From Escherichia virus KFS-EC: DNA of 64,000 bases. Below the pieces are notes generated by a model. That model ran no database searches, was not told the origin of the DNA, and was given only the letters and a program-made list of their open reading frames with translations. Position 1 is the stretch's first letter. Each line of letters starts with the position of its first letter. Location of the stretch: sequence record MH560358; one strand, written 5' to 3'. Shown here piece by piece: positions 1 through 62,278 of this stretch. The position numbers and the translations under genes are program-made.

Positions 1-16
1 ATTTGTTCAACCATTA

Positions 17-349
17 TCACACCTTTAAAGTCATAGACGCATAAACATTAATGCCAGGCCAGTTAGGATCGCAATTATACTCAACATCCCACAAATAAAG
101 CGGTTTAGATGTATCAGCCAAGTTTTTAAAATCTTCTACCCACATTTCAAGGCTATATGATGGATAAACTAGGCTATCATATCCGCCGTAACGTTGGCCT
201 ACTGGTCGGTCAGTAAAAACTACATCAAGATCCGGTAATTCTTTTTCAAGGATAACCGCCAGCGCATAAATCAGACGGTCTTCCTTGTTACGCTGCCGTA
301 GGACCGTTGTCAGTTGGTTTTTCTGGTTCACTAGCAAGCACCTCCACAT
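17..349 (-). CDS. hypothetical protein (about 110 aa)
   Basis: Six-frame ORF; first ATG at 349 (track start 355 is GTG). No recognisable motif. Overlaps the upstream gene by about 60 nt. Confidence 0.35.
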   Translation of the reverse strand: MWRCLLVNQKNQLTTVLRQRNKEDRLIYALAVILEKELPDLDVVFTDRPVGQRYGGYDSLVYPSYSLEMWVEDFKNLADTSKPLYLWDVEYNCDPNWPGINVYASMTLKV

Positions 350-608
350 TTTCACAGAATGAAATTTTCACAGACACAATTTTACCATAAGTGAAGAATG
401 AATATACATTATCGAGATATTCAACGTCACCTACAATCACATCAAACTGCGGATCAGCCACTGCCGCAACATATTCTACCAGTTCATCAAGAGAATGCAA
501 CTTAATTTCATCAATTCGGCTGTATTTGGTTGCATCTTTGATTTTAAAACCACGTTCTTTCAGCTTATCAATTAGAATTTCACGCGGAGTTTCAAACAGT
601 TTGCTCAT
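288..608 (-). CDS. hypothetical protein (106 aa)
   Basis: ORF with GAGG Shine-Dalgarno a few nt upstream of the ATG at 608; no recognisable motif. Confidence 0.45.
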   Translation of the reverse strand: MSKLFETPREILIDKLKERGFKIKDATKYSRIDEIKLHSLDELVEYVAAVADPQFDVIVGDVEYLDNVYSFFTYGKIVSVKISFCENVEVLASEPEKPTDNGPTAA

Positions 609-629
609 AATATAATCCTCACATTAAAT

Positions 630-830
630 CTAAAATTTGTTAACGACGAATTGCATAATTAGACTAATCACAAACATTGCAAACCAAGTATAAATGCAAC
701 AGATAAAAGCTACATACAATTCAATCTGGTCAGAGAATACACCTGGTAAAAGCATTAGCAAAATAACAACAGTAAAAACGCTAGCGATACCCGCAACAAA
801 ACCAATATCATTTTTACTAATCGTCATCAA
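630..830 (-). CDS. small hydrophobic (membrane) protein
   Basis: 66-aa ORF dominated by hydrophobic stretches; tandem with two similar small ORFs. Confidence 0.4.
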   Translation of the reverse strand: MMTISKNDIGFVAGIASVFTVVILLMLLPGVFSDQIELYVAFICCIYTWFAMFVISLIMQFVVNKF

Positions 831-1036
831 GTCACCGTTTTGTAAAGAAACACAATAAAATCCAAGACAAGAAAGACAGTGTAAATGATCATCGTCAAGA
901 CAGTAAACACTGTCAAATTTTCATCGTTAGTTAATTCATAGTCGCCCATCCATACAACCACAAGATATAGCATTGAAAGAATGGAAGCACCTACGAAGTT
1001 AAAAAACATATTCTTGAGCGTCATATTAACAACCAT
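827..1036 (-). CDS. small hydrophobic (membrane) protein
   Basis: 69-aa ORF with two hydrophobic segments; 4-nt stop/start overlap with neighbour. Confidence 0.4.
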   Translation of the reverse strand: MVVNMTLKNMFFNFVGASILSMLYLVVVWMGDYELTNDENLTVFTVLTMIIYTVFLVLDFIVFLYKTVT

Positions 1037-1208
1037 CGCGGCTTAAGTCAACAGCAATTGCATACAGCATAATGAATATGCTAGCCGATCCGAGAATCAA
1101 TACACCCTCACATTTTGAAACTCGCTCATCAAAATGTAACATTATCCATCCGAGGATGTTAAAGGCGCAGACCGCGCCTATGTTCGCTAACCAATTAATC
1201 TTTTTCAT
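1026..1208 (-). CDS. small hydrophobic (membrane) protein
   Basis: 60-aa ORF, hydrophobic core; overlaps neighbour. Confidence 0.35.
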   Translation of the reverse strand: MKKINWLANIGAVCAFNILGWIMLHFDERVSKCEGVLILGSASIFIMLYAIAVDLSRDGC

Positions 1209-1216
1209 AATATACC

Positions 1217-1543
1217 TTAGAAAGAAACAGTTTTCAAGAAATCCAGATTTTTAGTACCGAAAACAGAAAAGTAGTGTTTTCCTTTTTCGGTTTTAGAGAA
1301 AGCGATTGTCTTCTCTACATGGTGACGGAAGCCAGACAGACGATCACCCAGGTCAAGGCGGCAAGCGTAAGTAGTGCCGTTTTCGAAAGTAACCTCGATT
1401 TGAGTTTTGTCGTATTCGCTTTCATAGGCTTTTGCTGCCGCGTCCTGTGCTTTACGCTCGAAGTCTTCGAAGTGGAATACTTCGTTTGCGTTAGCGAATA
1501 CAGAAGATTCAGAGAAGATAACTTTAACAGATACTGGTTTCAT
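1217..1543 (-). CDS. hypothetical protein (108 aa)
   Basis: ORF whose ATG directly abuts a conserved promoter-leader cassette ending ...AGGAGTATCAAAATG. Confidence 0.55.
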   Translation of the reverse strand: MKPVSVKVIFSESSVFANANEVFHFEDFERKAQDAAAKAYESEYDKTQIEVTFENGTTYACRLDLGDRLSGFRHHVEKTIAFSKTEKGKHYFSVFGTKNLDFLKTVSF

Positions 1544-1620
1544 TTTGATACTCCTTAGTAGTTCGTGTTTCGTTTCGATGGGTGTATTATGCTATACACC
1601 CTCTCTCGTGTCAACAACTT
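1544..1620 (-). promoter_or_regulatory. PeSL-like early promoter + stem-loop + leader cassette
   Basis: Minus-strand reading: TTGACA -35, AT-rich -10 within an inverted repeat, conserved CGAAACGAAACAC leader, GGAG SD, ATG. Same cassette recurs at least 10 more times in the window. Confidence 0.6.
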
Positions 1621-1622
1621 TT

Positions 1623-1811
1623 TTAGTCTTTTTTCATAATTTCTAGAGCAGTTTCTACAGCACCTTTCCAACCTTCCCACATAATGGACATAGTAAGGAA
1701 GTTAAAGCACCCGCAGGAATCAACCTTTTTAGAGATAAACCATTCTACAAACGCTTCGCTCATACCATGCTCTTTAGCGGATTCGCGTAATTGTTCAATT
1801 TGGTCTTCCAT
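1623..1811 (-). CDS. hypothetical protein (62 aa)
   Basis: ORF with GAGGTGA SD upstream. Confidence 0.4.
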   Translation of the reverse strand: MEDQIEQLRESAKEHGMSEAFVEWFISKKVDSCGCFNFLTMSIMWEGWKGAVETALEIMKKD

Positions 1812-1833
1812 AGTATCACCTCAACACTTAACG

Positions 1834-2028
1834 TTATTCAAACTCAAACGGTCTATTCATCCTATTGTAAAAGTACATATAACAAGCATAGTTATGTTTT
1901 GGTTGTACCGTATCAGATAGACACGCTTTTACAGCCTCGCGGTCCGATGGGTCTACACCCTCAGCTTTAAGTAATTCTAAAATCTGGTTATAGCGTACTC
2001 TTAGTTGTACTAATGGTTTATCCCCCAT
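1834..2028 (-). CDS. hypothetical protein (64 aa)
   Basis: ORF with AGGGGG SD upstream. Confidence 0.4.
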   Translation of the reverse strand: MGDKPLVQLRVRYNQILELLKAEGVDPSDREAVKACLSDTVQPKHNYACYMYFYNRMNRPFEFE

Positions 2029-2037
2029 ATTACCCCC

Positions 2038-2259
2038 TTATAGTTGATCAGCGATGTAAGCGTGACAAGCGCGGAGTTTCATTAATGCACTACCTTTCAC
2101 TTCGCCTACGATGTTCATAACTTCTAAGCGGTCGGATGGATTCATCTTAGAGCACCAGATCTGGTTAGCCAATTCCAGTTTACTCATATTTGGTTCCATC
2201 TCAAACAGTTCACGCTCAAAGTCGATAATTTCTTTTGCTGCGTCTTTAAAGTTAATCAT
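2038..2259 (-). CDS. hypothetical protein (73 aa)
   Basis: ORF immediately downstream of a PeSL-like cassette. Confidence 0.5.
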   Translation of the reverse strand: MINFKDAAKEIIDFERELFEMEPNMSKLELANQIWCSKMNPSDRLEVMNIVGEVKGSALMKLRACHAYIADQL

Positions 2260-2322
2260 TTTGATTCTCCCGTTTCGTTGATGGTTGTATTGTAGGGGAG
2301 TTATCCTCCCCTGTCAACACTT
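2260..2322 (-). promoter_or_regulatory. PeSL-like early promoter cassette
   Basis: TTGACAGGGGAGGATAACTCCCCTACAATACAACCATCAACGAAACGGGAGAATCAAAATG on minus strand; GGGGAG...CTCCCC inverted repeat spans the -10 region. Confidence 0.6.
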
Positions 2323-2325
2323 TTA

Positions 2326-2511
2326 TCAGAAATATGCAATATAGTTTGCCAGTCCTACAGAGTCATCATTCGGCATTGCTTTTACTGCCAGTTCAAACCC
2401 TGCTTCAACTTTCTGTTTAGCGGATTCTTCGTTATAACCCCAGATTACCAGAATAGCTACTACGTTTTCTTTGCTTACTGCTTTCAGTGCTTTAGTGATG
2501 CGACGTGCCAT
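2326..2511 (-). CDS. hypothetical protein (61 aa)
   Basis: ORF preceded by PeSL-like cassette. Confidence 0.5.
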   Translation of the reverse strand: MARRITKALKAVSKENVVAILVIWGYNEESAKQKVEAGFELAVKAMPNDDSVGLANYIAYF

Positions 2512-2596
2512 AATTTGATTCTCCGTTTAAGAAAGTGTGTTTCGTTTCGATGGGTGTATTATGCTATAGGCCGGGTCTGGTGTCAACAACTTTTTT
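2512..2596 (-). promoter_or_regulatory. PeSL-like early promoter cassette
   Basis: TTGACA at about 2581-2586 (minus strand), conserved leader CGAAACGAAACACACTT and GGAG SD. Confidence 0.6.
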
Positions 2597-2614
2597 AAAA
2601 AAATTTTAGGCAAT

Positions 2615-2638
2615 AAAAAAGCCACTCCGAAGAGTGGC
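2615..2638 (-). terminator. intrinsic terminator (minus-strand orientation)
   Basis: GCCACTC-CGAA-GAGTGGC hairpin followed by a T-run when read on the minus strand. Confidence 0.6.
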
Positions 2639-2789
2639 TTATAGGGAAGGTAGCGAATCTTCCTTGTCTCCAACCTGCTAGCGGCCTAGCAAGTGAATGC
2701 TTTAGCGTACCGGATCGCCCACATACGCTGTAATAAATGCGGCTAGGTGACGTCCAAATCATTCTAACCGCGCTGTCTTTAGTTCACTA

Positions 2790-3008
2790 TTATTTATATC
2801 GCTTTCTCTCGCGACGTTTTTGATCTTCTTCCTTGATAGAGTTAAATGCATCAAAAAGACACATGACACTAATAATAAACATAACCGTATTTTCTACGAT
2901 ATCCCACGGCTTCGCATCAGTACAGATCCCCAAAACGGTAAGAAATGCAAATAAGGCAGAAGAGATCACAAGCATGATACTTGCTAAGATATAAAAAGTC
3001 ATTTTCAT
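2790..3008 (-). CDS. small membrane protein (72 aa)
   Basis: Two hydrophobic segments and a basic C-terminus (RRERKRYK). Confidence 0.45.
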   Translation of the reverse strand: MKMTFYILASIMLVISSALFAFLTVLGICTDAKPWDIVENTVMFIISVMCLFDAFNSIKEEDQKRRERKRYK

Positions 3009-3199
3009 GGTTTTACCTCAATTCTTCGATATTCATCACACATCCACGCAGTAAGCAAGAATCCCAACACATAAGCAACAAAATACGTTAATGCTTCTTC
3101 TGGTTCGGTGCTATGCGTCATCATCAGACCAGCGAGAAAGGTCTTAACAATTACATTTAAAATAATTAGCCACGCAAATAATTTCATCGTTTGCCCCAT
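3005..3199 (-). CDS. small membrane protein (64 aa)
   Basis: Hydrophobic segments; 4-nt overlap with neighbour. Confidence 0.45.
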   Translation of the reverse strand: MGQTMKLFAWLIILNVIVKTFLAGLMMTHSTEPEEALTYFVAYVLGFLLTAWMCDEYRRIEVKP

Positions 3200-3423
3200 T
3201 TCGGTCGAGTCTTTTCAAACTTATACATTCCGTAACAATCTCGAATCATCCACGTAACAAGAGCACCAGTCAACACAGACAATACACAGAAGAAGTAAAA
3301 CGGTCCGGTTGCATTATCAACATGAGCAAGCCAGGTAAAGAAAACACATGCTAAGAATGTAAAGAACATCATAAAGCACAAGAAAGCGAAATATTTTATA
3401 CTACTCATAGCGCCACCATACAA
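3184..3423 (-). CDS. small membrane protein (79 aa)
   Basis: Hydrophobic segments. Confidence 0.45.
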   Translation of the reverse strand: MYGGAMSSIKYFAFLCFMMFFTFLACVFFTWLAHVDNATGPFYFFCVLSVLTGALVTWMIRDCYGMYKFEKTRPKWGKR

Positions 3424-3511
3424 CAGATCATAAGAAAACCCAACGCAATAAGAATTGCATCAAATTTAGTGAACTCAGGTCCACCTATCAAAATCATTCG
3501 TTCTATTTCGT

Positions 3512-3709
3512 TCATAGCGTACAAAGCCATTTAAAAGCACCACATAAAGCGAGCAGAATACTAGGTATAAACGAGACCATAACAAGTTTGCAAAAATCAT
3601 CTAAGGTAACACCGGAATAGCTACCTACTGTAACAACACCGATCATCAGACACAGAAAGAAAACAAATGCAATCATAAACAAAGTATTGCTAAACAGTTT
3701 AGTGATCAT
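3512..3709 (-). CDS. small membrane protein
   Basis: Hydrophobic ORF. Start placed at internal ATG 3709 (GGGGTG SD; 11-nt overlap with upstream gene) rather than track start 3790. Confidence 0.35.
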   Translation of the reverse strand: MITKLFSNTLFMIAFVFFLCLMIGVVTVGSYSGVTLDDFCKLVMVSFIPSILLALCGAFKWLCTL

Positions 3710-3902
3710 TAGACACCCCACGACGATCAATTTCAAAAACTTTTTTATCATCAACGAAGCATGTAACAACTGCCTCGTTGACTTCCGCAAATTGTTGTGT
3801 TACCCACTTAAGGTCAGAGCGAAACAATGTTCTATTAATAACAAATGTTTTACCGCTCTTATCCTTACCCATAAATTTTGCTTTAACCATATCCAATTCC
3901 AT
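3699..3902 (-). CDS. hypothetical protein (67 aa)
   Basis: ORF with AAGGTGA SD upstream of ATG at 3902. Confidence 0.45.
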   Translation of the reverse strand: MELDMVKAKFMGKDKSGKTFVINRTLFRSDLKWVTQQFAEVNEAVVTCFVDDKKVFEIDRRGVSNDH

Positions 3903-3909
3903 ATTATCA

Positions 3910-4068
3910 CCTTATTTGCTAATCGCTAAACCCAATCCGAAGAGAGCACCCGATGCTACAGTATACCCGAAAGTTTCAAATGCAGTAAAGATATCTAAGC
4001 CACCAGCTAACAGAGTTGCAGTAAACAGAGTACCAGCTACGAACATAAAAGTTTTACCGATAAATTTC
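3910..4068 (-). CDS. small membrane protein (52 aa, MKFIGKTFMFVAGTLF...)
   Basis: ORF below the 60-aa track cutoff, found by hand; its ATG abuts a PeSL-like cassette (GGAGAATCAAAATG). Confidence 0.45.
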
Positions 4069-4140
4069 ATTTTGATTCTCCTTTCGTTTGTTTGTGGGGG
4101 GTATCTTACTACCCCCGTTTCATGTTGTCAACTATTTTTA
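4069..4140 (-). promoter_or_regulatory. PeSL-like early promoter cassette
   Basis: TTGACA (4126-4131 minus), GGGGGTAGTAAGATACCCCCC inverted repeat, leader CAAACAAACGAAAGGAGAATCAAAATG. Confidence 0.55.
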
Positions 4141-4515
4141 AGAATATTTTACTTCGTCTACAATGTCTTTCATGACATTGATTTCCATTCCGGTCAGAAC
4201 ACGTTGGAACATGTGCTGCACATACGCTTTCAGGTATTCATTTGATGGCTTACTATCGAAAGTCTTTTTAGTGTAGTAGTCATCACCGAAAGCTACTGTA
4301 ATTACATTTTCGTCGTCGTTCCAAGCGATATAAGCAAATTTGCCGTTATCCCAGAAGCGAGCACTAATTGCTACTTTTGTTGAATCGAATCCTACTTCGC
4401 TGTGAGATTCAAGAACTACTTGCGTACCAGTTTCTTTATGAATGTAGTAGCGGGATACTAAGTCAAAGTTACGGGTGTAGTGACATTCGAATTTATCTTT
4501 AAACATCATCATCAT
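4138..4515 (-). CDS. hypothetical protein (125 aa)
   Basis: ORF preceded by PeSL-like cassette. Confidence 0.55.
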   Translation of the reverse strand: MMMMFKDKFECHYTRNFDLVSRYYIHKETGTQVVLESHSEVGFDSTKVAISARFWDNGKFAYIAWNDDENVITVAFGDDYYTKKTFDSKPSNEYLKAYVQHMFQRVLTGMEINVMKDIVDEVKYS

Positions 4516-4588
4516 TTTGATTCTCCTAAGTGTGTTTCGTTTCTATGTGTGCATTATGCTATAGTCGTTTATGGTTGTCAACACCTAA
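4516..4588 (-). promoter_or_regulatory. PeSL-like early promoter cassette
   Basis: TTGACA (4576-4581 minus), conserved leader and SD. Confidence 0.6.
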
Positions 4589-4592
4589 AAAC

Positions 4593-4618
4593 AAAAAACC
4601 CCGAAAAATTTTCGGGGT
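4593..4618 (-). terminator. intrinsic terminator (minus-strand orientation)
   Basis: CCCCGAAAA/TTTTCGGGG hairpin with T-run on minus strand, just downstream of the 57B-like gene. Confidence 0.6.
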
Positions 4619-4624
4619 ATAAAA

Positions 4625-5095
4625 TTACAGTTTGGTCGTCCACTCCAGGTCTAGATCTTCGACATACTCATGAGATCGGACAATCTCTAAATCGAACTCT
4701 AGGTCAGTGCCAAATTTACGCGCACCAACATCATAAGAAAGCGTGATATGCGGTACATATTCAGGATAATCCCACGTCGCACCTAAAGCAGTGCCGATAT
4801 CGTGTCTGAATTGCATGTAGTCGCTTTCAAATGCCAGCACAAGCGCATTAGTACCGGATTGAGTTTCAAACACTTTCAGATGGCATAGAGAGCCTAAGAA
4901 CTTCTCCCCTTCTTCTGGGATAAACGGAACATAGACACGAGAATATAAGATAGTGCTATGCAGTTTATCACGAGGAACGGCATTAGGCAGATCGTAGAAC
5001 TCCTGCAATTTTTCAATGCGGTCTAGTGTATCCTCAGTGAATTTAACCGCCGCATATGTACCTTTAACGGATTCTCTAAACGGGGTCATAATCAA
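4625..5095 (-). CDS. 57B: 2H-phosphoesterase-family protein, T4 57B-like
   Basis: Two H-x-T/S-x motifs (LHSTIL and PHITLS), the hallmark of 2H phosphoesterases; position immediately downstream of the 57A-like gene. Confidence 0.55.
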   Translation of the reverse strand: MIMTPFRESVKGTYAAVKFTEDTLDRIEKLQEFYDLPNAVPRDKLHSTILYSRVYVPFIPEEGEKFLGSLCHLKVFETQSGTNALVLAFESDYMQFRHDIGTALGATWDYPEYVPHITLSYDVGARKFGTDLEFDLEIVRSHEYVEDLDLEWTTKL

Positions 5096-5358
5096 GCCTC
5101 CGTGATCAGTTCTACTTCCTCTTCTGCGTCTTCCGCTGCTTCGTCTTTAGGGAGAAGTGCTTTCACTTCTTCGACAATAGCATCAAGGGAAACAGTCCCG
5201 TTTTCGTCTGGCTGAATACCCAGAATGCGTACCAGTTCCATCAATACACGCTCACGATCTTTCAGTTGGCCTTCTAAGAATGCGGCCTTTTCTTGAGTGT
5301 CAAACAGACGTACTTTCAGGACATTAATCATTTGTTCATGCTGATTGGACATATTCAC
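5092..5358 (-). CDS. 57A: tail-fibre assembly chaperone gp57A-like
   Basis: 88-aa coiled-coil-like protein with acidic C-terminus, adjacent to gene 1; resembles T4 gp57A as recalled. Confidence 0.55.
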   Translation of the reverse strand: MNMSNQHEQMINVLKVRLFDTQEKAAFLEGQLKDRERVLMELVRILGIQPDENGTVSLDAIVEEVKALLPKDEAAEDAEEEVELITEA

Positions 5359-5384
5359 ATCTCCTACTTGTTGATAACTTTTTA

Positions 5385-6041
5385 TTAAATGTTCGCGAGA
5401 ATCGCGCTTTCAAATTCTTCTAATGTACCATTATTTATGATAATGGTTTCACCGTCAATAGGCAAAATTCCTTTTTCGGTGGAGTGAGTCGATACAATAC
5501 CAGTATCACGCTGAATATGCAACACCTTAGCACCCATAGCACGCATTAGAGCAATTTCAATAGGCTGACGCACATCAACCACTACAAAATACCCTTCTTC
5601 ATTTTTGCGCTTCATAAACTCATTCACGAAGAGATTACACCAATAAAGCGGATTGATCAAGTTAACCATTATATCAGTACCGAGAGTGGTTAACATGAGA
5701 CGAATAGACCAGACGTTATTATGTTTTTCGCCGATCTCATTAACGACCTTGTAAATCTCAGCCAGACGATCACAAGTAAAGGAACTACCGCCATACTTCG
5801 AATCTAGCATAAGCAGACACTGAATAAACCACTTATGCGCGGTATAGGTATCAATACCTAGATCGGCTTCTCTGTCACGCCCTAACCCGTCAAAGTCAAG
5901 ATAAGTCAGACCTAAGTCTGGTTGACATTCGCATAAGATTTCTTTGATCGGTGCTGCCAGTTGATAACTGTGTCCATCAATGATTAACGCGGCAGTATCT
6001 TTTCCTACTCGCTTTTTACCACAAAGTGCAATCAATTTCAT
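5385..6041 (-). CDS. 1: deoxynucleoside monophosphate kinase (gene 1)
   Basis: N-terminal P-loop MKLIALCGKKRVGKDT; size and position match T4 gp1. Confidence 0.75.
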   Translation of the reverse strand: MKLIALCGKKRVGKDTAALIIDGHSYQLAAPIKEILCECQPDLGLTYLDFDGLGRDREADLGIDTYTAHKWFIQCLLMLDSKYGGSSFTCDRLAEIYKVVNEIGEKHNNVWSIRLMLTTLGTDIMVNLINPLYWCNLFVNEFMKRKNEEGYFVVVDVRQPIEIALMRAMGAKVLHIQRDTGIVSTHSTEKGILPIDGETIIINNGTLEEFESAILANI

Positions 6042-6056
6042 TATATAAGCCTCTTA

Positions 6057-6647
6057 TTACTTTCTAAAAGCAGGGTGCATAGCTTTAATACCTTCCACCC
6101 TCTGACGATCCGCCGCCTGAATTGCTGGGCGAGGAACGATCAGTTGACCATCACGTTCAATGCTCATTGTTTTAAAGGGAAGAATTGCAGTACACACCAG
6201 AGATTCATGCATATCATCGGTGTATGTTAACTCAAGTTCCCCCAATTGTGAACACCAACAACCATAAAAGTTAAAAGTGCACACAATGTTACGTCGTTCG
6301 TTGTCCATCATGTGAACTTGAACGGCTTCCGGCATTGAATCCTTCCACGCAGTGGAGTTACCGTTATTGTAGTCTACTATAGAAAGCATCCATGTGTAAA
6401 GGTTTAGATAGCTTTCCAAATGCTCATCGACAATAAACCGGACTACCAACGGGTCAAACTCCACATGACTAGACGGATAATCAGCGACCGCCAAACCATA
6501 TTGACCAGCAACTTGCTTAGTCGGTGGAATGGTTATAGCCGGAAGTGTAACACCTTGAGCATTTAAAGTAAAGCCTTTTGTTAGTTGTCCATCTGGAATA
6601 TTGATCTGCCAGTTGCTGGGGTTAGCATAGTTAAAGAGATTAGACAT
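6057..6647 (-). CDS. 3: gp3-like tail completion / sheath stabiliser
   Basis: Assigned by position between gene 1 and gene 2 homologues and by size (196 aa); no diagnostic motif. Confidence 0.5.
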   Translation of the reverse strand: MSNLFNYANPSNWQINIPDGQLTKGFTLNAQGVTLPAITIPPTKQVAGQYGLAVADYPSSHVEFDPLVVRFIVDEHLESYLNLYTWMLSIVDYNNGNSTAWKDSMPEAVQVHMMDNERRNIVCTFNFYGCWCSQLGELELTYTDDMHESLVCTAILPFKTMSIERDGQLIVPRPAIQAADRQRVEGIKAMHPAFRK

Positions 6648-6724
6648 TACTGATTCCTCAAATGAAAATATTTATTAACAATTGTCGCTTTGCGACGTGC
6701 CGGAGGCACTGACTACTTTTTAAC

Positions 6725-6767
6725 CGAAACAAATTTTTATTATTCTAAAGATCTTTCTTCGTTTTGG
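6725..6767. repeat. copy A of a ~45-bp repeated intergenic element
   Basis: CGAAACAAATTTTTATTATTCTAAAGATCTTTCTTCGTTTTGG; near-identical to sequence at 42904-42961 and 43066-43111. Confidence 0.7.
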
Positions 6768-6836
6768 TTATGTTTTAACCAATAACTATATTTTTATACA
6801 GTAATAAATAAAACGGGTACTATACGAGGACTTCTT

Positions 6837-7091
6837 ATGACAGAAGACATTTTGTTAAAACTCTATGATCGTTTGGATAACGAATTAGCAACATTGCGGG
6901 GTGAAGTTCTCTATTTGTCTAAATGCAATACAGATCTGCTTAAGCAGATTGCAGAAAGGGATGACCAAATAAAATCCCTTTCAGGTGCATTACGTGATCG
7001 CGACAAGGCATTAGAGATTTTACAGCGTGTTACCAATAAGGAAGAATTAAAAGACTTCTTACATGGTTATGCTCATGCTATCGATCTATAA
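6837..7091 (+). CDS. hypothetical coiled-coil protein (84 aa)
   Basis: Plus-strand ORF between minus-strand gene 3 and gene 2 homologues; GAGGA SD upstream; heptad-like sequence. Confidence 0.4.
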   Translation: MTEDILLKLYDRLDNELATLRGEVLYLSKCNTDLLKQIAERDDQIKSLSGALRDRDKALEILQRVTNKEELKDFLHGYAHAIDL

Positions 7092-7092
7092 T

Positions 7093-7116
7093 AAAAAAGC
7101 CCGTCATTGACGGGCT
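7093..7116 (-). terminator. intrinsic terminator (minus orientation)
   Basis: GCCCGTCA-TT-TGACGGGC hairpin with T-run on minus strand, downstream of gene 2. Confidence 0.6.
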
Positions 7117-7121
7117 TAATG

Positions 7122-7943
7122 TTATGCATCCTTCCAAACTTTCCTTGCGTCGTATTTCTTGCCTTTTGACATAAACTGATATGTCGGCATATAGATAATA
7201 TTGCTCCAGTCTTTCGGGCTAATCTCAACAAGTTTTGTTTTAATGTGTCCCGGTAGATATGCTTTGATCATGTGGTCACTACCACGCATACCTTTTACAT
7301 CGCTCCATTTGATTTTTAAGCGTGTTTTATTGCTCAAGGTAGGAGTAGATGCATATTGCTTTAAAAGTGCTTCCAGAAACTGCTGACGGGCTTTAGGCGT
7401 TACATAGTGTAAGTTAAGACCCAGCATAACAGTATTACCCGCTTTTGTCTTAGAATCACCCAGACAAATGATCAGCGGGAAAACATCCCAATATGGCAAA
7501 GTGTCTTTATACTTCGCATCATACATAAAGGTATAGATTCGCCCTACTTGCGGTTTTACAATCTGGTGTCCCTTTATTCCCGCTTTTATTGTTTTAGTAA
7601 ACCACTCCTGTGATTTTTCTTTCGGACGACTCTTTGATACAGCACGCATAGACGCACGAAAATCATTAATCATCATCATTGCGCGTTGCTGCTTATTGAG
7701 ACCCTTTGCGCCTTTCCCTTTTAGTTTTTCAACTTCTATTGCTGTTTTAATTTCGCTGGCATAACGAGACATACTTTTAGTGAAAGTCGCATAGGCTATT
7801 CCCTTAGAATCTGCAAATGCTTTAGCTGTCATGCCTTTGGCTTTTGCTTTCGCAAATTCTACACCCAATTCGACCCACTGTTTAGACTTTCTTTTTTGGG
7901 GAGACGGCTTTTCGTCTTCTGTGATTATTTCAAATACGCTCAT
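7122..7943 (-). CDS. 2: gp2-like DNA end protector protein
   Basis: 273-aa basic protein in the 1-3-2-4 position; size matches T4 gp2 as recalled. Confidence 0.55.
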   Translation of the reverse strand: MSVFEIITEDEKPSPQKRKSKQWVELGVEFAKAKAKGMTAKAFADSKGIAYATFTKSMSRYASEIKTAIEVEKLKGKGAKGLNKQQRAMMMINDFRASMRAVSKSRPKEKSQEWFTKTIKAGIKGHQIVKPQVGRIYTFMYDAKYKDTLPYWDVFPLIICLGDSKTKAGNTVMLGLNLHYVTPKARQQFLEALLKQYASTPTLSNKTRLKIKWSDVKGMRGSDHMIKAYLPGHIKTKLVEISPKDWSNIIYMPTYQFMSKGKKYDARKVWKDA

Positions 7944-7954
7944 AATATTATCCT

Positions 7955-8428
7955 CTATTTGTTAAGCCCTTTAAAGCCAAACACTTTCTTTAATGCATGT
8001 TCGGTTATGATCTTAAACTCCATGTTATGCTTTTGGCATAATTTCACGGCAGCTAACCATTTTTCAGTATTTTTTGTGTATGTCCATACTTCATGCATAT
8101 ATCGTTGCTTTGTCTTCGCGGTCATTCTTTTTGGCTTTTCCGGTGGCCTTGTCTCTTTAGCTGGTTTAACTTCCCATAAATGCTCCTTGCCATCATCAAA
8201 CTTAACGTAAAAATCCATAAAGTATCTGTGTCTTTTTCCGTCTGTTGATGACTCATAAGGAATTACTACGGTCTCAGATCCCCATTTTGCAACTCTAGGA
8301 TTGCGGTCTAGCCACTGCATGATCCATCTTTCCCAGCTTGAACGGTATGTGATCTTACGTATATCCCCTTTATACTTTTCCTTATTCTCAGGAACATACT
8401 TGCCCTTATAAGTGTTAGATCCTCCCAT
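7955..8428 (-). CDS. 4: gp4-like head completion protein
   Basis: 157-aa ORF between the gene 2 and gene 53 homologues. Confidence 0.55.
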   Translation of the reverse strand: MGGSNTYKGKYVPENKEKYKGDIRKITYRSSWERWIMQWLDRNPRVAKWGSETVVIPYESSTDGKRHRYFMDFYVKFDDGKEHLWEVKPAKETRPPEKPKRMTAKTKQRYMHEVWTYTKNTEKWLAAVKLCQKHNMEFKIITEHALKKVFGFKGLNK

Positions 8429-56365: not shown

Positions 56366-56834
56366 ATTTTGCTAAATCATTGCAATATTTTAGTGCCTTA
56401 GTTTGAAATTCTGCGCTGTTAAGTTCTTCATAACGGTCATAATCACCGTTTAATGCTGCCTTTCTTGCTTCTTGCTCTATCTGCATGTCAGACATGATAA
56501 TACAGCGATCCCGCGCTTTCATCTTCTCAAGTTGTATAGACTCTTCTTTCTGCTTGCGCAATTCTTCTTGACGCTTCTTTTCTTCTTGTGCTTCTTTGAT
56601 TGCATCCTTGAACATCTGCGTTTGTGGTGCTAAACCAACTTTAACGCGATCCACGTCTCGACGTTCCATTTTAGAAATAAAGCACGATTCGATCTGATCA
56701 TCACTTGCATATGCTGCTTTACATTCACGAAGCAAGAAAACCGGATCTGATTTAGCATTCATCATAGCTTCCATGTTGGCACAACCAGTAAGCATGAATG
56801 CAGCCGCAAGACCAATCAGTTTAATCATTTTCAT
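56364..56834 (-). CDS. predicted lipoprotein (156 aa)
   Basis: Signal peptide with lipobox LTGC (MKMIKLIGLAAAFMLTGC); charged coiled-coil-like middle; own GAGGTGA SD inside the 3' end of the upstream gene. Confidence 0.6.
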   Translation of the reverse strand: MKMIKLIGLAAAFMLTGCANMEAMMNAKSDPVFLLRECKAAYASDDQIESCFISKMERRDVDRVKVGLAPQTQMFKDAIKEAQEEKKRQEELRKQKEESIQLEKMKARDRCIIMSDMQIEQEARKAALNGDYDRYEELNSAEFQTKALKYCNDLAK

Positions 56835-57655
56835 TTAGTCACCTCACCGAAAATTGTAAATTGTCTACGATTCTCATCGCCGAAAGATTCTACTACGTCG
56901 TTTACCTTGACGCAAGTCCCGCGCGGTAAAATTACTTCACATTCGCAAGGGTTCCATGCAATTGACCCAACAACAAAACCTTTATGATCTTTTACGTCAA
57001 TTACCCATGATACATTACAAGAATGTTGCATCTTTCCGGTCATTGATTCATATCGATTCTCACAATAAAGGCTAGTGCTGTTTGATAGCCATCCTCCAAA
57101 GATGATTGGTGTCATGCTGGTTGACACAAAGTTTTTAAAGGTAAATTCCTTATCTTCAATAATACGCTCTATTGTCTGAATGTCAAGATGTTGACCGCGA
57201 TAAAGAGTACCGTTTAACTTTTCGGTTTTATCCATGACACAATCCATCAAATCGACAATCTCTGATATCTCATCGGTCATGTCTTCTTCCCCTAAGAGAG
57301 CACCATTTACCCATTCGTATTGCTCAGACACATAATCACAGATTGCATTATATTCTGCTGGTGTTATGTTGTTATGTTTGTAATGTTTGAATACATTATC
57401 TCCAAAGTCTTCGGAGTGTACTTCATACATCACATTAATGATTTTCTTGACAAATCCATAATCTTGTGTCTCACGCTCAAGGAAGCGGATAACCTTCACA
57501 TAATCATCAAAGTTAATCTGATCGCTGATCATCTCAGTGATCATGTAACCATTAATCCCCTCAATGTCATATGTTTCGATGTAATTATCCATACGTTCCA
57601 TCATTGATTCGCGTGATTCTTCTGAAAGACGAAAATCCTGTAATTTCTTGAACAT
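56831..57655 (-). CDS. Alt-like ADP-ribosyltransferase paralogue (274 aa)
   Basis: R-S-ExE triad: LYRG, FVSTS, ECEVILPRG, parallel to YRG / YVSTS / ECEILLPRG in the adjacent Alt. Confidence 0.7.
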   Translation of the reverse strand: MFKKLQDFRLSEESRESMMERMDNYIETYDIEGINGYMITEMISDQINFDDYVKVIRFLERETQDYGFVKKIINVMYEVHSEDFGDNVFKHYKHNNITPAEYNAICDYVSEQYEWVNGALLGEEDMTDEISEIVDLMDCVMDKTEKLNGTLYRGQHLDIQTIERIIEDKEFTFKNFVSTSMTPIIFGGWLSNSTSLYCENRYESMTGKMQHSCNVSWVIDVKDHKGFVVGSIAWNPCECEVILPRGTCVKVNDVVESFGDENRRQFTIFGEVTK

Positions 57656-57666: not shown

Positions 57667-57700
57667 CATATAACAGAAAACGGGGCTAGTATAAAACTAG
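57667..57700. terminator. bidirectional hairpin terminator
   Basis: Perfect palindrome AAAACGGGGCTAGT...ACTAGTCCCCGTTTT. Confidence 0.65.
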
Positions 57701-57733
57701 TCCCCGTTTTAGTCAACCATTATTTCTTAAAAA

Positions 57734-59785
57734 TTACATTTTAAATTTATCTGGCATTGCGTCTACAGATACCAGATCAGCGATAAGCTGACGTAGAGTT
57801 GCCTTATCTGCTTTCTTACGTTCGGTTTTAGCTTCGCTAATGAAGCTGGAGAAAGACAGGTCAGAAGCAGGTTTAACAACACCTTCACGGATGAATGCAT
57901 CACCGTCCGCGATCATCTCGCCAGATTCTTGTAATGCTGCCAGTTCATTTTTGTTCATAATATGTGCCTCAATGTAATAAGTTTCTTGTGAATCCGTCGA
58001 TGCCGTAGCACGAGTTACCGTATCAAAGGATAACACAACACCGCGAGGAAGTAAAATCTCGCATTCTTTGTAAGCAAATGCTTTGTTACCTACTGGCAAG
58101 ACAGGGAGGTTTTCCGCGCCAGCAATGGAGAAAGCAACATTAGCGCCACCTTCACCACGAGAGCCAGCCATAGAATCAACACCAGCAACGGCACTAGCCA
58201 CGTTTGCATTCCAGCCGCCAAAAATGTTAGGTGCAAGGGAAGTGCTCACATAGTTTTTAAAGTAAAACGCTTTTTGCTTACGTGCAGTTTCCCACATTTG
58301 CGACCGGAAGTCCATACCACGATACAGAATAGTACCCGGATCAAGTTTAACGCCATAGTTGGAGAAGGCATTATCCAGTGCATCGCACATCTTGACCAAT
58401 TCTTCTGGATCTGAGATGCCTTCAAACTCTTCCAGCTTACGGTCGGTTAGGAAGTTGTTCATATTGATGTATGCTGCATCGGCATATTCGCTCAACACAA
58501 AACCTTCCGCGCCTGGCAGATCAAGATCAATATCTGCCATCATTTCACCCATGTTGCTAGCAATTGCTTCAAACATACCGGAAGCAACATTACGTAGGGC
58601 ATCGGTTTTAATCTGGGTGATGTGACTACGCAGCATTTCAGCTTTTACATCTGCTGGCATAGACTGGTCTACTCGAACCATTGCTAGGGCGGTGATCTTG
58701 TTTTCGAATACTTCCTCGCTCATGATTTCTTTTAAGCGTTTGATTGATGCTGCGATAACTTCCGCAGACAACGGATCATATTGATCCTGAACTTTTACCA
58801 GTTCGCTTACTGCGTATTTTGCATCGGCTTCGCTTTCAAAAATAGTACGCATGAAACCATAGCGAGTGATAATATCACTTGTCCAGTCATTCAGAGAACG
58901 GGCGGTTGAACGTTCTAAGGCTTGACGATCAATCAGAGTATTAAACTGTTTCTTAGGTTCGGCTTCGGTGATATCTTCTTCCGGTTTAAGATTAATTTTT
59001 TCTGGATGATTCACATAGTCGCTGTTATAGGTCGCTTGAGTTTTCAGCATTTCTTCTTTAGTCAAACGAGATTTAGCCGCTACGCGTTGTTCCGCTTCCG
59101 CGTTTCGTTCTTCTTCTGACACAAGACTAGCCGCATACGCCTCATCTTTAGTCAGTGATTCACCAGTAGCCTTAGATACCCAGCGATCACCTAAATCACT
59201 TTCTACTTTAGTGAACAAGGATTCATCAAGTTTAATCCCTTTAATCTTATCAATCGCCATACCGCGACGCTTGACAACAACTAAAGCGATCTTTTTGCTG
59301 GTCATTACTTCCTGCTGGAATACTTCAAACTTCGGTGTACGACGCACCAAACGCTCTATAACGCGCTTAACCAGTTCGGTCTTACCTTTCATGCGGGATA
59401 CGTTAAAACGGAACATAACAGCGTCTAATTGCGCTTTACGGGCTGTTTCCATAACCACATCAAAAGCACTTGCCATGACTGCAATCGGGTTATCGCCTAG
59501 ACCATTTTTAAGCTGTACAATACGACCGCTTTTGTTCATTTCGCACAGTACAACATGTGCGGTCTTGTCACCCATACGAATGATTTTAGGTGTTTTGTTG
59601 GTGAAGTTACAAAGACGGACAATCACATCTTTATCGCGTGTCTGTACTGCAAAAAGCTGTTTAGGATTCTGCTTAGGCTTTAAGCACTGTACAGGAGCAA
59701 TACTGCCAAAGTTTTCTTCCTCTTCCGTCAACAGCCATTTCTCGAAAGATTCAATCATTAGATCGTCGATTTCTAAGTTAAACAT
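57734..59785 (-). CDS. alt: ADP-ribosyltransferase Alt
   Basis: 683 aa, C-terminal R-STS-ExE motifs; position after gene 54 as in T4. Confidence 0.85.
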   Translation of the reverse strand: MFNLEIDDLMIESFEKWLLTEEEENFGSIAPVQCLKPKQNPKQLFAVQTRDKDVIVRLCNFTNKTPKIIRMGDKTAHVVLCEMNKSGRIVQLKNGLGDNPIAVMASAFDVVMETARKAQLDAVMFRFNVSRMKGKTELVKRVIERLVRRTPKFEVFQQEVMTSKKIALVVVKRRGMAIDKIKGIKLDESLFTKVESDLGDRWVSKATGESLTKDEAYAASLVSEEERNAEAEQRVAAKSRLTKEEMLKTQATYNSDYVNHPEKINLKPEEDITEAEPKKQFNTLIDRQALERSTARSLNDWTSDIITRYGFMRTIFESEADAKYAVSELVKVQDQYDPLSAEVIAASIKRLKEIMSEEVFENKITALAMVRVDQSMPADVKAEMLRSHITQIKTDALRNVASGMFEAIASNMGEMMADIDLDLPGAEGFVLSEYADAAYINMNNFLTDRKLEEFEGISDPEELVKMCDALDNAFSNYGVKLDPGTILYRGMDFRSQMWETARKQKAFYFKNYVSTSLAPNIFGGWNANVASAVAGVDSMAGSRGEGGANVAFSIAGAENLPVLPVGNKAFAYKECEILLPRGVVLSFDTVTRATASTDSQETYYIEAHIMNKNELAALQESGEMIADGDAFIREGVVKPASDLSFSSFISEAKTERKKADKATLRQLIADLVSVDAMPDKFKM

Positions 59786-59853
59786 TTTATATCCTCTAGT
59801 TGATAACCTATAAACCTATATTTATGAAAACGGGGATTAACGCCCCCTTTTTA

Positions 59854-60066
59854 TTATAATGCACCATCAAGCAATTGCTCTAAGGTGTATCCTGAATAGT
59901 CTTTTTCAATCAGGATATATTTTCCTACTCGTTTAATACAACCACGCATTTCAACGTATTCTGCGTAGTTGATGGTACGAGTTGTTCCATCTTCCAGTAA
60001 TGCAGTACCGATTTCGTTAATGCGGTCATAAGTTACGTCGGTAATGATGATTTCGATGTTAGCCAT
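59854..60066 (-). CDS. hypothetical protein (70 aa)
   Basis: Start set at ATG 60066, which abuts the PeSL-like cassette; the track's N-terminal extension is translation of the leader. Confidence 0.5.
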   Translation of the reverse strand: MANIEIIITDVTYDRINEIGTALLEDGTTRTINYAEYVEMRGCIKRVGKYILIEKDYSGYTLEQLLDGAL

Positions 60067-60140
60067 TTGATACTCCTTAGTAGTTCGTTTCGGTATGTGT
60101 GCATTATAGGGGATCACCGATCCCCTGTCAACAACTTTTT
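60067..60140 (-). promoter_or_regulatory. PeSL-like early promoter cassette
   Basis: TTGACA (60126-60131 minus), GGGGATC...GATCCCC inverted repeat, leader CGAAACGAACTACTAAGGAGTATCAAATG. Confidence 0.6.
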
Positions 60141-60657
60141 AGTTATTTTTTAATTGTTCATCTTGCAATAATGCAATCACATGCTGGCGATGTTCTTCCG
60201 ATTGAGGTACACCGAAAAAGTTTGTTTTGTAGAAATACTCTAATCGGTCTTCTCGTGTGCTCTCTTCCATCATGATCGCGGGTAGTCCGAGATTTCGGAA
60301 ACGTCGCTTTTCTGCTGGCGTAAAATCACTGTAATACAACATAGAATCATCATTACAAGCAATGCTAAACTCATCTTTCATAAAGGAGAATATTGCGTTT
60401 AAACGCTGTTTACCGTCCACGATTTCGATCTCATAGCGAGAGCCATCATCAATCTTAGCCATTGCGATAGCACCAACCGGAAAATCATTAATCAGGTTTT
60501 CGATAAACATACGTTTGTTTTCGGTGTCCCATACCAAAGGACGCTGATAATCTGGGTTCATGTTGATATAGCCATCTTCTAACCATGCTTCGTAAACAGA
60601 GATGACAAAGTTTTTAGTATTGGTATAGTAACGGCGTTTAGGCGTTAAACGGTTCAT
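60139..60657 (-). CDS. DUF262 / ParB-like nuclease-domain protein
   Basis: DYQRPLVWDTENKRMFIENLINDFPVG...VDGKQRLNAIFSF fits the DUF262 signature (Y-x-RP-x-VW ... DGQQR); start at 60657 with AGGAG SD. Confidence 0.65.
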   Translation of the reverse strand: MNRLTPKRRYYTNTKNFVISVYEAWLEDGYINMNPDYQRPLVWDTENKRMFIENLINDFPVGAIAMAKIDDGSRYEIEIVDGKQRLNAIFSFMKDEFSIACNDDSMLYYSDFTPAEKRRFRNLGLPAIMMEESTREDRLEYFYKTNFFGVPQSEEHRQHVIALLQDEQLKNN

Positions 60658-60658
60658 G

Positions 60659-60991
60659 TTATAGTCTCCTGAATGGATCATCACGTAAATCAATATCTTT
60701 TAAGAACTCATCCCATGAATGGCGGATATTGTTCTTAATTCTCCAGATAAGCGCAGGGATTGAACGCTCTCCCATCTGGAAGTATGGATCATATGATCCG
60801 TATGACCAATATGCTACTACAATTCCACAATCAGCGCAATAGTATTCTATTTCACTTGCTGGCGACCAAAGTCCATCAATATGATCGGTGATCTTGCTTT
60901 CGATGTTATGGCTATGACAATCAGGGCAACGGATGCAATGACCTTGTTTATCGTAATTTGACGTTAGAGAATACTTAAACAATCTCATCAT
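60659..60991 (-). CDS. Cys4 zinc-ribbon protein (110 aa)
   Basis: CIRCPDCHSH...CADCG metal-binding pattern. Confidence 0.5.
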   Translation of the reverse strand: MMRLFKYSLTSNYDKQGHCIRCPDCHSHNIESKITDHIDGLWSPASEIEYYCADCGIVVAYWSYGSYDPYFQMGERSIPALIWRIKNNIRHSWDEFLKDIDLRDDPFRRL

Positions 60992-61704
60992 GGATCCTTA
61001 TTTGCTTCAAATACTGCCTTTGCGAATCCTCGCGGGGTAAGTGACCTGATAGTCTTTGTTTTCGTTCCTTTCCCGCCTAGCTTAGAATGCTGTTTACTGT
61101 ACCCTTTATTAATCTGCACCGGTTTCTTTTCTGGCATTATAAAGCCTTGTCCGGTCCATAAGCAAGTCTTTTTTGGGTACATATCACGGGCGGCAATATA
61201 CTCAGGAAACGTAGGATGCTTATCATCTTCCGGCAAATAACCGCCATATTCCCACGGATGGAACATGTAATCAGGCTTACGCCACATGCTAGAGATAACG
61301 CTTACAGGATTCTCTATCATGTAGGGAACTCCTAGCCATTCACCCAAATAAGCGGTTATTTTAGCTGCCCGTACATCATGAACTTGAATCAATGGTCCTT
61401 GTTCTAGTTTCTTTCGTTCAAAGTGCGCAGCGCCACTAACAGCTAAATTGGTGCACGGTGGGAATGCAAAGATAATATCCGGTTTCCCCCATTCAAGGTC
61501 CATTGCTCTTTCCAGCCAGTTCAAATCAACCCAGGTGTTTACATAGGTAATGTTTTGATGTTCAAATCGGGTATTATATTTTTTGTATGTACCGTGGTCG
61601 CCATCGTCAGCATTAAAGCAGATCACCTTATGACCCGCTTTAGCCCATTCTAACCCCATTATCCCCGATCCGTCAAAGTTGCAGAATATTAATTTTTGTT
61701 TCAT
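60988..61704 (-). CDS. compact DNA C5-cytosine methyltransferase-like protein
   Basis: Motif I-like FCNFDGSGIMG, motif IV IIFAFPPCTNLAVSG (catalytic Pro-Cys), motif VI MIENPVS in canonical order and spacing; no recognisable target-recognition region or motifs IX/X. Confidence 0.6.
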   Translation of the reverse strand: MKQKLIFCNFDGSGIMGLEWAKAGHKVICFNADDGDHGTYKKYNTRFEHQNITYVNTWVDLNWLERAMDLEWGKPDIIFAFPPCTNLAVSGAAHFERKKLEQGPLIQVHDVRAAKITAYLGEWLGVPYMIENPVSVISSMWRKPDYMFHPWEYGGYLPEDDKHPTFPEYIAARDMYPKKTCLWTGQGFIMPEKKPVQINKGYSKQHSKLGGKGTKTKTIRSLTPRGFAKAVFEANKDP

Positions 61705-61946
61705 ATACTCCCCTTTAATCCAACACAGATTTTAGAAGGTTCTTTGCCGTGCCACATTAAGTAAAGTCCGTTAATGCGGCCTTGTTTTGTATATGATTCT
61801 TTTCTGATCTTCTTATAGTGTCGTGTTTCCTCAGCCGATTGTTTAGAATACCAATCATAAAGGAAGATGAACAAAGGCCACCCATTAGCGGCCTTAATGC
61901 AGTTATTCAAAAATTCCTTATTGCGTTTAATTAATTTTCTTTTCAC
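61701..61946 (-). CDS. hypothetical protein (81 aa)
   Basis: ORF, stop/start overlap with neighbours. Confidence 0.45.
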   Translation of the reverse strand: MKRKLIKRNKEFLNNCIKAANGWPLFIFLYDWYSKQSAEETRHYKKIRKESYTKQGRINGLYLMWHGKEPSKICVGLKGSI

Positions 61947-62194
61947 GCTGCCCCCATTGGTTTGATAGTAACAGAATCTAAAAGACCTTTGTTAGCCAGT
62001 TCGCGGCAAGTTTTCAGATCCGCAACTTCCCAGCCAGCCGCAATCAGGTTATCGATTAGGCTGTTAGCAACTTCTTCGCTCATGAAAGAGCACTGTTTGC
62101 CGATGGTGTAGCGTACACGCTGTAATTTCAGTTTACGGAAGCCTTTAACGTTCAGGTCTTTAGCGATTTTCTTTGCGGTTTCGATGTTAGCCAT
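61943..62194 (-). CDS. hypothetical protein (83 aa)
   Basis: First gene after a PeSL-like cassette. Confidence 0.5.
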   Translation of the reverse strand: MANIETAKKIAKDLNVKGFRKLKLQRVRYTIGKQCSFMSEEVANSLIDNLIAAGWEVADLKTCRELANKGLLDSVTIKPMGAA

Positions 62195-62275
62195 TGTTTG
62201 ATTCTCCTAAGTGGTATCTCGTCTTGATGGTTGTATTGTAGGGGGAGTTATCCTCCCCTGTCAACACTTTTTATA
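62195..62275 (-). promoter_or_regulatory. PeSL-like early promoter cassette
   Basis: TTGACAGGGGAGGATAACTCCCCCTACAATACAACC...GGAGAATCAAACAATG (minus strand). Confidence 0.6.
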
Positions 62276-62278
62276 AAA

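Follow-up and report, generated by a model that had tools for sequence, protein, structure and literature searches.

Five short repeated elements in the left-hand gene cluster of Escherichia virus KFS-EC (MH560358; the whole 64,000-nt stretch that was analysed is called the window below, and positions refer to it) are very probably promoter-early stem-loops (PeSLs), near-consensus sigma-70 early promoter cassettes of RB49-type T4-like phages. The window belongs to an RB49-like Krischvirus, a T4-type coliphage. Its positions 1-8000 are 98.1% identical to positions 56119-64100 of RB49 (NC_005066), and 56 further Krischvirus records match them at 95-99%. PeSLs were defined in the coliphages RB49 and phi1, which carry 51 and 52 copies, respectively (Arbiol et al. 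2010, PMC2839356). The element is thus already published, and the left copies themselves are on record as predicted promoters of RB49 and in the annotation of phage GEC-3S; they re-discover a published element and add one more genome to a known picture. The original prediction, made from the letters of the window, had described PeSL-like cassettes flanking small minus-strand genes, five of them in the left-hand cluster and eleven in all, and each of these statements was borne out. The minus strand carries all genes of positions 1-6650, and the five left cassettes read along it as follows.

1544-1622, minus strand: PeSL cassette between g114 and g113; -35 box TTGACA at 1614-1609; -10 box CATAAT at 1591-1586; 8-bp hairpin GGGTGTAT/ATACACCC at 1601-1580, over the -10 box; leader CATCGAAACGA at 1580-1570; Shine-Dalgarno (SD) block GGAGTATCAAA at 1554-1544; RNA fold of -16.1 kcal/mol, z -5.1.
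2260-2325, minus strand: PeSL cassette between g117 and g116; -35 box at 2317-2312; -10 box TACAAT at 2294-2289; the whole 17-nt spacer, 2311-2295, is the hairpin GGGGAG-GATAA-CTCCCC; SD block at 2270-2260; RNA fold of -21.0 kcal/mol, z -5.0.
2512-2640 (core 2512-2596), minus strand: PeSL cassette upstream of g117; terminator at 2640-2619 with a 9-bp stem and a T run; A/T-rich tract; -35 box at 2586-2581; -10 box CATAAT at 2563-2558; leader CATCGAAACGA at 2552-2542; SD block at 2524-2514.
4071-4137, minus strand: PeSL cassette between g125 and g124; -35 box at 4131-4126; weak -10 box TAAGAT at 4108-4103; hairpin GGGGGTA/TACCCCC at 4116-4097, over the -10 box; SD block at 4081-4071; RNA fold of -13.6 kcal/mol, z -2.6.
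4516-4624 (core 4516-4588), minus strand: PeSL cassette between gene 57B and g125; terminator at 4618-4598; -35 box at 4581-4576; -10 box CATAAT at 4558-4553; leader CATAGAAACGA at 4547-4537; SD block at 4526-4516.

In a promoter scan of both strands, TTGACA-N17-(C/T)A(T/C)AAT was found on the minus strand; its -35 boxes are at 1614, 2317, 2586 and 4581, and these four left copies scored 11/12. The fifth left promoter, with its -35 box at 4131 and the -10 box TAAGAT, is weaker and scored 10/12, also with a spacer of 17 nt. Eleven cassettes, five left and six right (60067-64000), were found in the window, all on the minus strand, and their alignment showed that conservation extends well past the two hexamers, so that they share extended identity and not merely a generic promoter consensus, which was the question that the original prediction had put to such an alignment. 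Every copy has an A-tract and (A)GTTG/GTG upstream of the -35 box, three compact copies have an upstream stop codon 4-7 nt from that box, and TATAG frequently precedes the -10 box. On the 3' side, a start-site/leader block resembling CATCGAAACGA is accompanied by the conserved leader blocks ACACCCAT (ACAC(C/A)CAT) and CGAAACGA, and the SD block GGAGAATCAAA(A)ATG places GGAG(A/T)ATCAAA 0-3 nt 5' of ATG in 11/11 copies. This repetition is far from random: GGAGWATCAAA occurs 11 times in the window (0.08 expected), each time on the minus strand and with a start codon directly following, and the composite TTGAC-N19-ANNAT-N5-CM-N3-8-ACGA occurs 10 times (0.01 expected). Exact runs common to left-right cassette pairs measured 7-30 nt, compared to a mean of 6.5 for random pairs of 95-nt windows; the copies at opposite ends of the window, between which long identity was reported earlier, belong to one family. 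Every cassette is intergenic, and among the downstream genes only dmd has an assigned function.

Hairpins were found in 10/11 cassettes, with fold z scores from -1.7 to -5.1. Three of the left hairpins lie inside the promoter, one lying between the -35 box and the -10 box and two over the -10 box, and the other two are terminators upstream of the -35 box, at 2640-2619 and 4618-4598, where a G/C hairpin followed by a T run gives the pattern of an intrinsic terminator. The published definition of the PeSL lists five hairpin positions, or subclasses, relative to the promoter (PMC2839356), and the left hairpins fall among them. The five left cassettes thus carry the whole set of PeSL sequence features: promoter, AT tract, stem-loop, 3' SD with start codon, and intergenic siting.

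Records of relatives contain the same sites. Of the 51 early promoter sites predicted in RB49 by Nolan et al. 2006 (PMC1524935, additional files 3 and 6), Pe:57746 corresponds to the cassette at 1544-1622, Pe:58430 to 2260-2325, Pe:58699 to 2512-2596, Pe:60244 to 4071-4137 and Pe:60694 to 4516-4588; the left -35 boxes map onto RB49 positions 57732, 58416, 58685, 60230 and 60680. RB49 terminators predicted at 58720-58737 and 60699-60717 (PMC1524935) correspond to those at 2640-2619 and 4618-4598 of the window, and the GenBank record of GEC-3S has five promoters and two terminators annotated at the homologous sites. Both lists present the promoter sites as promoters only, with no hairpin or recombination concept. 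As in the PeSLs of RB49 and phi1 (PMC2839356; Comeau et al. 2014, PMC4122927), phages of the same group, an AT tract, a TTGACA-N17-TATAAT-like promoter, G(n)-loop-C(n), SD and ATG follow one another in intergenic positions before ORFans, and the right half of the window is HPR3 (ORF185-199), the locus of the mini-circles described below. The present genome differs in that its HPR3 is without ORF186, ORF192 and ORF195/196 and its left copies show almost no plasticity in the genus. For some RB49 and phi1 PeSLs, promoter and terminator activity was observed with lacZ fusions (PMC2839356). In the window, the anatomy of the five elements, their non-random repetition, their siting before each transcription unit and their identity with promoters predicted or annotated in relatives can be read directly.

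Host RNA polymerase would probably fire the left cassettes right after infection. Judged by position, they would define five short early units, namely g125, g124-g118, g117, g116-g114, and g113 onward. The promoter at 4581 would serve g125; that at 4131 would serve g124, dmd and a further five genes for small membrane proteins, up to the terminator 2640-2619; those at 2586 and 2317 would serve g117 and g116-g114, respectively; and that at 1614 would serve g113 and the genes downstream. Hairpins and terminators would insulate adjoining units, and phage recombination, acting on 70-100 bp of dispersed homology, would be able to remove, add or exchange the genes that lie between cassettes, in line with the mini-circle model of PeSLs.

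The ribosome-binding block may have a second function. The strong RegB/S1 sites of T4 have the consensus GG*AGRAYARAA, and a diverged form of the regB gene exists in RB49 (PMC3014915). Compared with this consensus, which is that of T4 and not of the diverged RB49 enzyme, the GGAGAATCAAA block agrees at 10/11 positions in nine copies and at 9/11 in two. Like the T4 targets, the cassette block is intergenic and part of the ribosome-binding sites in front of early genes; unlike them, it is a predicted site, and RB49 RegB is among the diverged enzymes. We infer that the SD block is conserved for a dual role, as ribosome-binding site and as early-mRNA inactivation site, in which the GGAG block would double as a RegB/S1 cleavage site shutting cassette mRNAs off later.

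Some observations weigh against the identification of the left elements as PeSLs, or narrow what it implies. The hairpins at 1601-1580, 2311-2295 and 4116-4097 have no U run and are not classical intrinsic terminators, and one right-hand cassette, 62805-62874, has no hairpin at all, the sole such copy of the eleven. The promoter, terminator and cleavage functions of the five left copies are predictions, and the cleavage site is predicted from a T4 consensus in a group whose RegB has diverged. Neither gain nor loss of genes was seen in the left region of 56/57 relatives; a recombination role of these five copies is suggested by their family and has a local trace only in phage Skers, described below.

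Evidence that cassettes take part in recombination comes mainly from the right-hand cluster, where the following six copies were found.

60067-60138, minus strand: chimeric cassette formed from the pair of PeSLs on either side of ORF186 in RB49 and phi1.
62195-62278, minus strand: cassette upstream of the ORF190 homologue; its core is near-identical to that of 2260-2325, and its leader and SD are those of 63145-63269.
62447-62522, minus strand: cassette upstream of the ORF191 homologue; spacer hairpin; site of the extra ORF192 in RB49.
62805-62874, minus strand: cassette upstream of the ORF193 homologue, the copy without a hairpin.
63145-63269, minus strand: cassette upstream of the ORF194 homologue; terminator at 63262-63243; breakpoint of the RB49 ORF195/196 block.
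63917-64000, minus strand: cassette upstream of the ORF198 homologue; hairpin over the -10 box; cut by the end of the window.

The 5' half of the cassette at 60067-60138 is that of the PeSL before RB49 ORF186 and its 3' half is that of the PeSL before ORF185, with the crossover inside the CATACCGAAACGA leader. By this comparison, a crossover between the leaders of the PeSLs on its two sides deleted ORF186, which is absent from the window. Relative to RB49 the window is without ORF186, ORF192 (site at 62523) and ORF195/196 (63166-63261), and relative to phi1 it is without ORF186 only; the right-hand regions of G37-3 and ECD7 are collinear with that of the window. Over 59800-64000, every indel breakpoint with respect to RB49, phi1, Brandy and ELT4 was inside a cassette or at its edge. 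Brandy has a chimeric cassette, analogous to that at 60067-60138, which removes ORF191 at the original site, and a second, diverged (84-88%) ORF191 module with its cassette was found elsewhere in Brandy (L006, 7737-7977) and in ELT4 (L007, 6954-7192) by comparison with window positions 62278-62517. Spacer and leader relatedness among the eleven cassettes were uncorrelated (Mantel r 0.06, p 0.27), and the best partners for spacer and leader differed in 9/11 cassettes. Mini-circles were demonstrated at the ORF191-194 locus of RB49 and phi1, where the crossovers fall after the -10 box and before the SD (PMC2839356), and the right-hand crossovers found here occupy the same zone. Cassette-to-cassette exchange as a process is well supported by these comparisons and is clear in the right-hand region, the HPR3 of RB49, which thereby provides clean new examples of the published mechanism, such as the loss of ORF186.

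A further promoter (TTGACT...TATACT) on the minus strand at 57688-57716 has a hairpin, AAAACGGGG...CCCCGTTTT, over its -10 box and lies upstream of a gene at 56831-57655. It has another leader and SD, and is PeSL-like by the published definition while standing outside the eleven.

The left-hand cluster presented a different picture. Positions 1200-4700 were fully covered by 57/57 Krischvirus records, and in 56/57 the match was a single collinear piece of 3481-3509 bp. The cluster is therefore not plastic within the genus but evolutionarily stable, and its earlier description as hyperplastic has to be given up; the one exception is Skers (MW748999; locus L097, 345-650), the sole left structural variant of the 57. 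Skers has an insertion exactly in its homologue of the PeSL at 1544-1622, which brings a 47-aa ORFan, SKERS_252, together with a cassette of the type found in Drexlerviridae phages, ATAGCACTTTTTGTTAAAAC...TATAGT...CATCGAAAC. At the upstream junction the sequence is that of Krischvirus up to CATCGAAACGA, and at the downstream junction it is of the T1 type up to CATCGAAAC, followed by Krischvirus leader. A tblastn search of the phage collection found no homologue of SKERS_252 outside Skers and no donor. Though a single case, the two junctions are direct evidence that crossovers between phage families can take place at the shared leader.

The T1-like Drexlerviridae resemble the left region in genes as well as in cassettes. 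In a distant DNA search with positions 1200-4700, g117 had counterparts of ~77% nucleotide identity in more than 100 T1-like Drexlerviridae phages, and g115 and g116 were 82-84% identical in nucleotide sequence to those of the Drexlerviridae phages GaoY1-9D and BECP10, so that all three genes, at 1829-2524 of the window, are common to both groups. By tblastn, g117 (Pfam DUF7421) occurred in Krischvirus and T1-like phages only, save for one weak match in an Acinetobacter phage. The Drexlerviridae copies of g115-g117 stand behind a cassette composed of ATAGCACTTTTTGTTAAAAC, a G/C hairpin, a -10 box, N5-7, CATCGAAACGA, SD and ATG. In phage tonn, the upstream box of this T1 type occurs 20 times compared to 0.24 expected. 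Like PeSLs, the T1-like cassettes are repeats in intergenic positions, and upstream of the -10 box they carry a variable G/C hairpin; four tonn leaders are exactly CATCGAAACGA, followed by SD and ATG. They differ in their upstream half, where TTGACA at 17 nt is absent and another conserved box, ATAGCACTTTTTGTTAAAAC, is found. This T1-type box is absent from the window, where one match with 3 mismatches in a coding region is consistent with chance. In a limited literature search, we found PeSLs described only in T4-like phages, and no description of the T1-like cassettes as PeSL-like.

The leader was also found well beyond these two groups. A scan of viral contigs (IMG/VR) for CATAAT-N5-CATCGAAACGA returned at least 80 contigs of 6-360 kb, in which the motif is combined with several different upstream promoter halves. 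Of 86 matches among those listed, 74 had SD and ATG within 45 nt; the T1-type box was present in 49 of the matches listed and TTGACA/G at canonical spacing in 11. A 174-kb Klebsiella phage (Roth22, L098) combines a T1-type cassette with the leader CATCGAAACGAAACACACTTTAGGAGA, near-identical to the leaders of 2512-2596 and 4516-4588. The early promoters of T7 (positions 380-960 compared) also have blocks in common with individual cassettes: A2 has TTGACAACATGAA and AGTAAGATAC in common with the promoter core of 4071-4137, A1 has CCTATAG ahead of the -10 box and, at the start site, CCATCGA, as in 2512-2596 and 63145-63269, and A3 has CACAT(A)GAAACGA / CACATGAAACGA in common with 4516-4588. They differ in belonging to another phage family, in not being dispersed repeats, and in having neither a spacer hairpin nor SD and ATG directly after the promoter.

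These data suggest a wider picture, to which we give somewhat less than even weight. RB49-type PeSLs could be one branch of a promoter-leader design present in several enterobacterial phage families (Krischvirus, T1-like Drexlerviridae, 174-kb Klebsiella phages and others), with CATAAT-N5-CATCGAAACGA serving as a homology patch by which small early genes and their promoters move between unrelated co-infecting phages. The traces of such traffic are the identities of g117 and of g115/g116 to Drexlerviridae and the Skers insertion. If true, a leader linker across families would explain the spread of small early accessory genes among unrelated coliphages, and the process would be testable by co-infection.

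The same distribution can be read in another way, which we regard as unlikely. The cassettes could be independent strong early promoters, kept similar by selection on promoter, start-site and ribosome-binding function, the left copies having no part in recombination. This reading would account for the occurrence of the CATAAT-N5-CATCGAAACGA core, then SD and ATG, in contigs of very different size, for the blocks in common with T7 A1, A2 and A3, and for the structural stability of the left region. It does not account for the chimeric cassettes that coincide exactly with indel junctions of the right-hand region and of relatives, nor for the sole left variant, in which both insertion junctions fall in the CATCGAAAC block of the 1544-1622 cassette, and mini-circles were shown experimentally for the PeSL family (PMC2839356).

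A second alternative, which we consider improbable, is that left and right cassettes are alike because the two regions of this genome recently exchanged or duplicated sequence, as the original prediction had proposed. The segment that it quoted, GGGGAGTTATCCTCCCCTGTCAACAC, is real and belongs to a 30-nt identity between 2295-2324 and 62242-62271. This identity adjoins 21 exact nucleotides (2278-2298 and 62224-62244), with a 1-nt difference in the G run between, and the block common to 2278-2324 and 62224-62271 thus comprises ~47 nt of promoter core and idiosyncratic hairpin spacer. Cassettes 2512-2596 and 63917-64000 are 83% identical over 89 nt, and the promoter core before ORF198 in Brandy and ELT4 equals that of 1544-1622 (GGGTGTATAGCATAATACACCC), which could be a core swap or compensatory change; both observations would also suit exchange. 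However, the ~47-nt block is identical in the left copies of all three relatives checked, RB49, FL37 and GEC-3S, and occurs on the right in four of five, RB49, phi1 and ELT4 among them, whether the extra C is there or not; in Brandy the right promoter core was lost through a cassette-by-cassette deletion. Because the block is present in both left and right copies of relatives, it either predates the sampled genus, being older than the split of these phages, or is maintained across it. The flanking ORFs are unrelated as well: an all-versus-all blastp comparison of left and right small proteins gave no match below E 0.08, so that segmental duplication does not apply and only the cassettes are common to both regions. 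The collinearity of the left region in 56/57 relatives also argues against a recent event. Finally, since CATAAT-N5-CATCGAAACGA and CCTATAG occur in unrelated coliphages, including T7 (A1-A3) and T1-like phages, part of the similarity reflects a common strong-promoter design and not copying within the genome. What survives of the proposal is cassette exchange as a process, and not a recent left-right event.

It is very unlikely that the cassettes are small mobile elements, autonomous or not, of the miniature inverted-repeat transposable element/insertion sequence kind or the integron attC kind, inserted by a dedicated transposase or integrase, for while the copies are dispersed in one orientation, intergenic and near ORFans, and Arbiol et al. 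drew an analogy to integron cassettes (PMC2839356), the eleven-cassette alignment has no terminal inverted repeats or target duplications at cassette edges, the junctions are homologous crossovers within shared sequence and not precise element ends, and Arbiol et al. reported no integrase or recombinase in RB49 or phi1 (PMC2839356). PeSL-borne genes do resemble lambdoid morons and integron cassettes in that one or a few genes travel with their own promoter and terminator. Morons differ in not being thought to move via regulatory sequences and integrons in needing an integrase and attC, whereas here homologous crossovers fall in the promoter-leader repeat.

The left cluster contains small genes without assigned function, dmd, and homologues of T4 55.3, 57B, 57A, 1 and 3. 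The genes adjoining the cassettes are as follows.

1217-1543, minus strand: g113, downstream of the 1544-1622 cassette; its Pfam match is LPD25 (large polyvalent protein-associated domain 25), with E 3e-14.
1623-1811, minus strand: g114.
2038-2259, minus strand: g116.
2326-2511, minus strand: g117.
3699-3902, minus strand: dmd.
3912-4070 including the stop codon, minus strand: g124, a 52-aa hydrophobic protein equal to RB49p124; first gene of the unit behind the 4071-4137 cassette.
4138-4515, minus strand: g125.
4625-5095, minus strand: gene 57B.

ORF113 is in the list by Arbiol et al. of genes tied to islands, plasmids or integrons (PMC2839356). The existence of a 52-aa membrane protein gene next to the 4071-4137 cassette had been predicted correctly, with the coordinates 3910-4068 to be replaced by 3912-4070. 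Its product, g124, matches phrog_16462 over the full length (E 7e-36), and two transmembrane segments, 7-29 and 33-50, were predicted in RB49p124 by Nolan et al. 2006 (PMC1524935). Two minus-strand runs of tiny, strongly hydrophobic proteins of 41-74 aa (maximum 19-residue hydropathy of 2.1-2.9) are encoded at 630-1208 and 2790-3709, and belong to the units behind the cassettes 1544-1622 and 4071-4137, respectively.

From the stop codon of g118 to the 2512-2596 cassette lie 180 nt of the minus strand (2612-2792) that are unannotated in RB49 and GEC-3S, with short automatic open reading frame (ORF) calls in a few records. This stretch has an RNA fold of -60.3 kcal/mol (z -3.4), its 3' end is the terminator 2640-2619, and it is 96-100% identical across the 57 Krischvirus records. 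Differences among the most diverged copies lie in predicted loops and linkers, save for one substitution of kaaroe, C to A, at the flank of the third helix; no compensatory pairs were found among these relatives, whose identity is 96-100%. The only ORF, of 55 aa at 2595-2762, was rejected as a gene, because indels of 1 and 2 nt disrupt it in FL37, kaaroe, JSE and PHB13. An Rfam scan of positions 1-8000 (E<=1) gave weak, terminator-driven matches only, the best with 23.9 bits against a gathering threshold of 100, and a tRNA/tmRNA scan of the whole window found none. The only minus-strand copy of TATAAATA in the window, at 2798-2791, overlaps the last codons of g118 and the 5' edge of the structured stretch; the overall count of 10 is not significant against 5.9 expected. 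We propose 2612-2792 as a candidate small structured RNA of the phage, unrecorded as such in annotation, which may be derived from a 3' untranslated region or driven by its own promoter. A late promoter TATAAATA driving it is a possibility less secure than origin from the 3' untranslated region.

The extra ~1 kb of FL37 and ELT3 was considered as an insertion in the cassette region and rejected, because the FL37 piece lies outside the cluster and ELT3 is collinear over 1200-4700. In FL37 (locus L002, 7102-8154; window ~7100) it is an extra ~1-kb gene for a hypothetical protein of 350 aa, located between gene 2 and the ORF130 homologue and not at a cassette, and it may be an insertion of the homing-endonuclease type.

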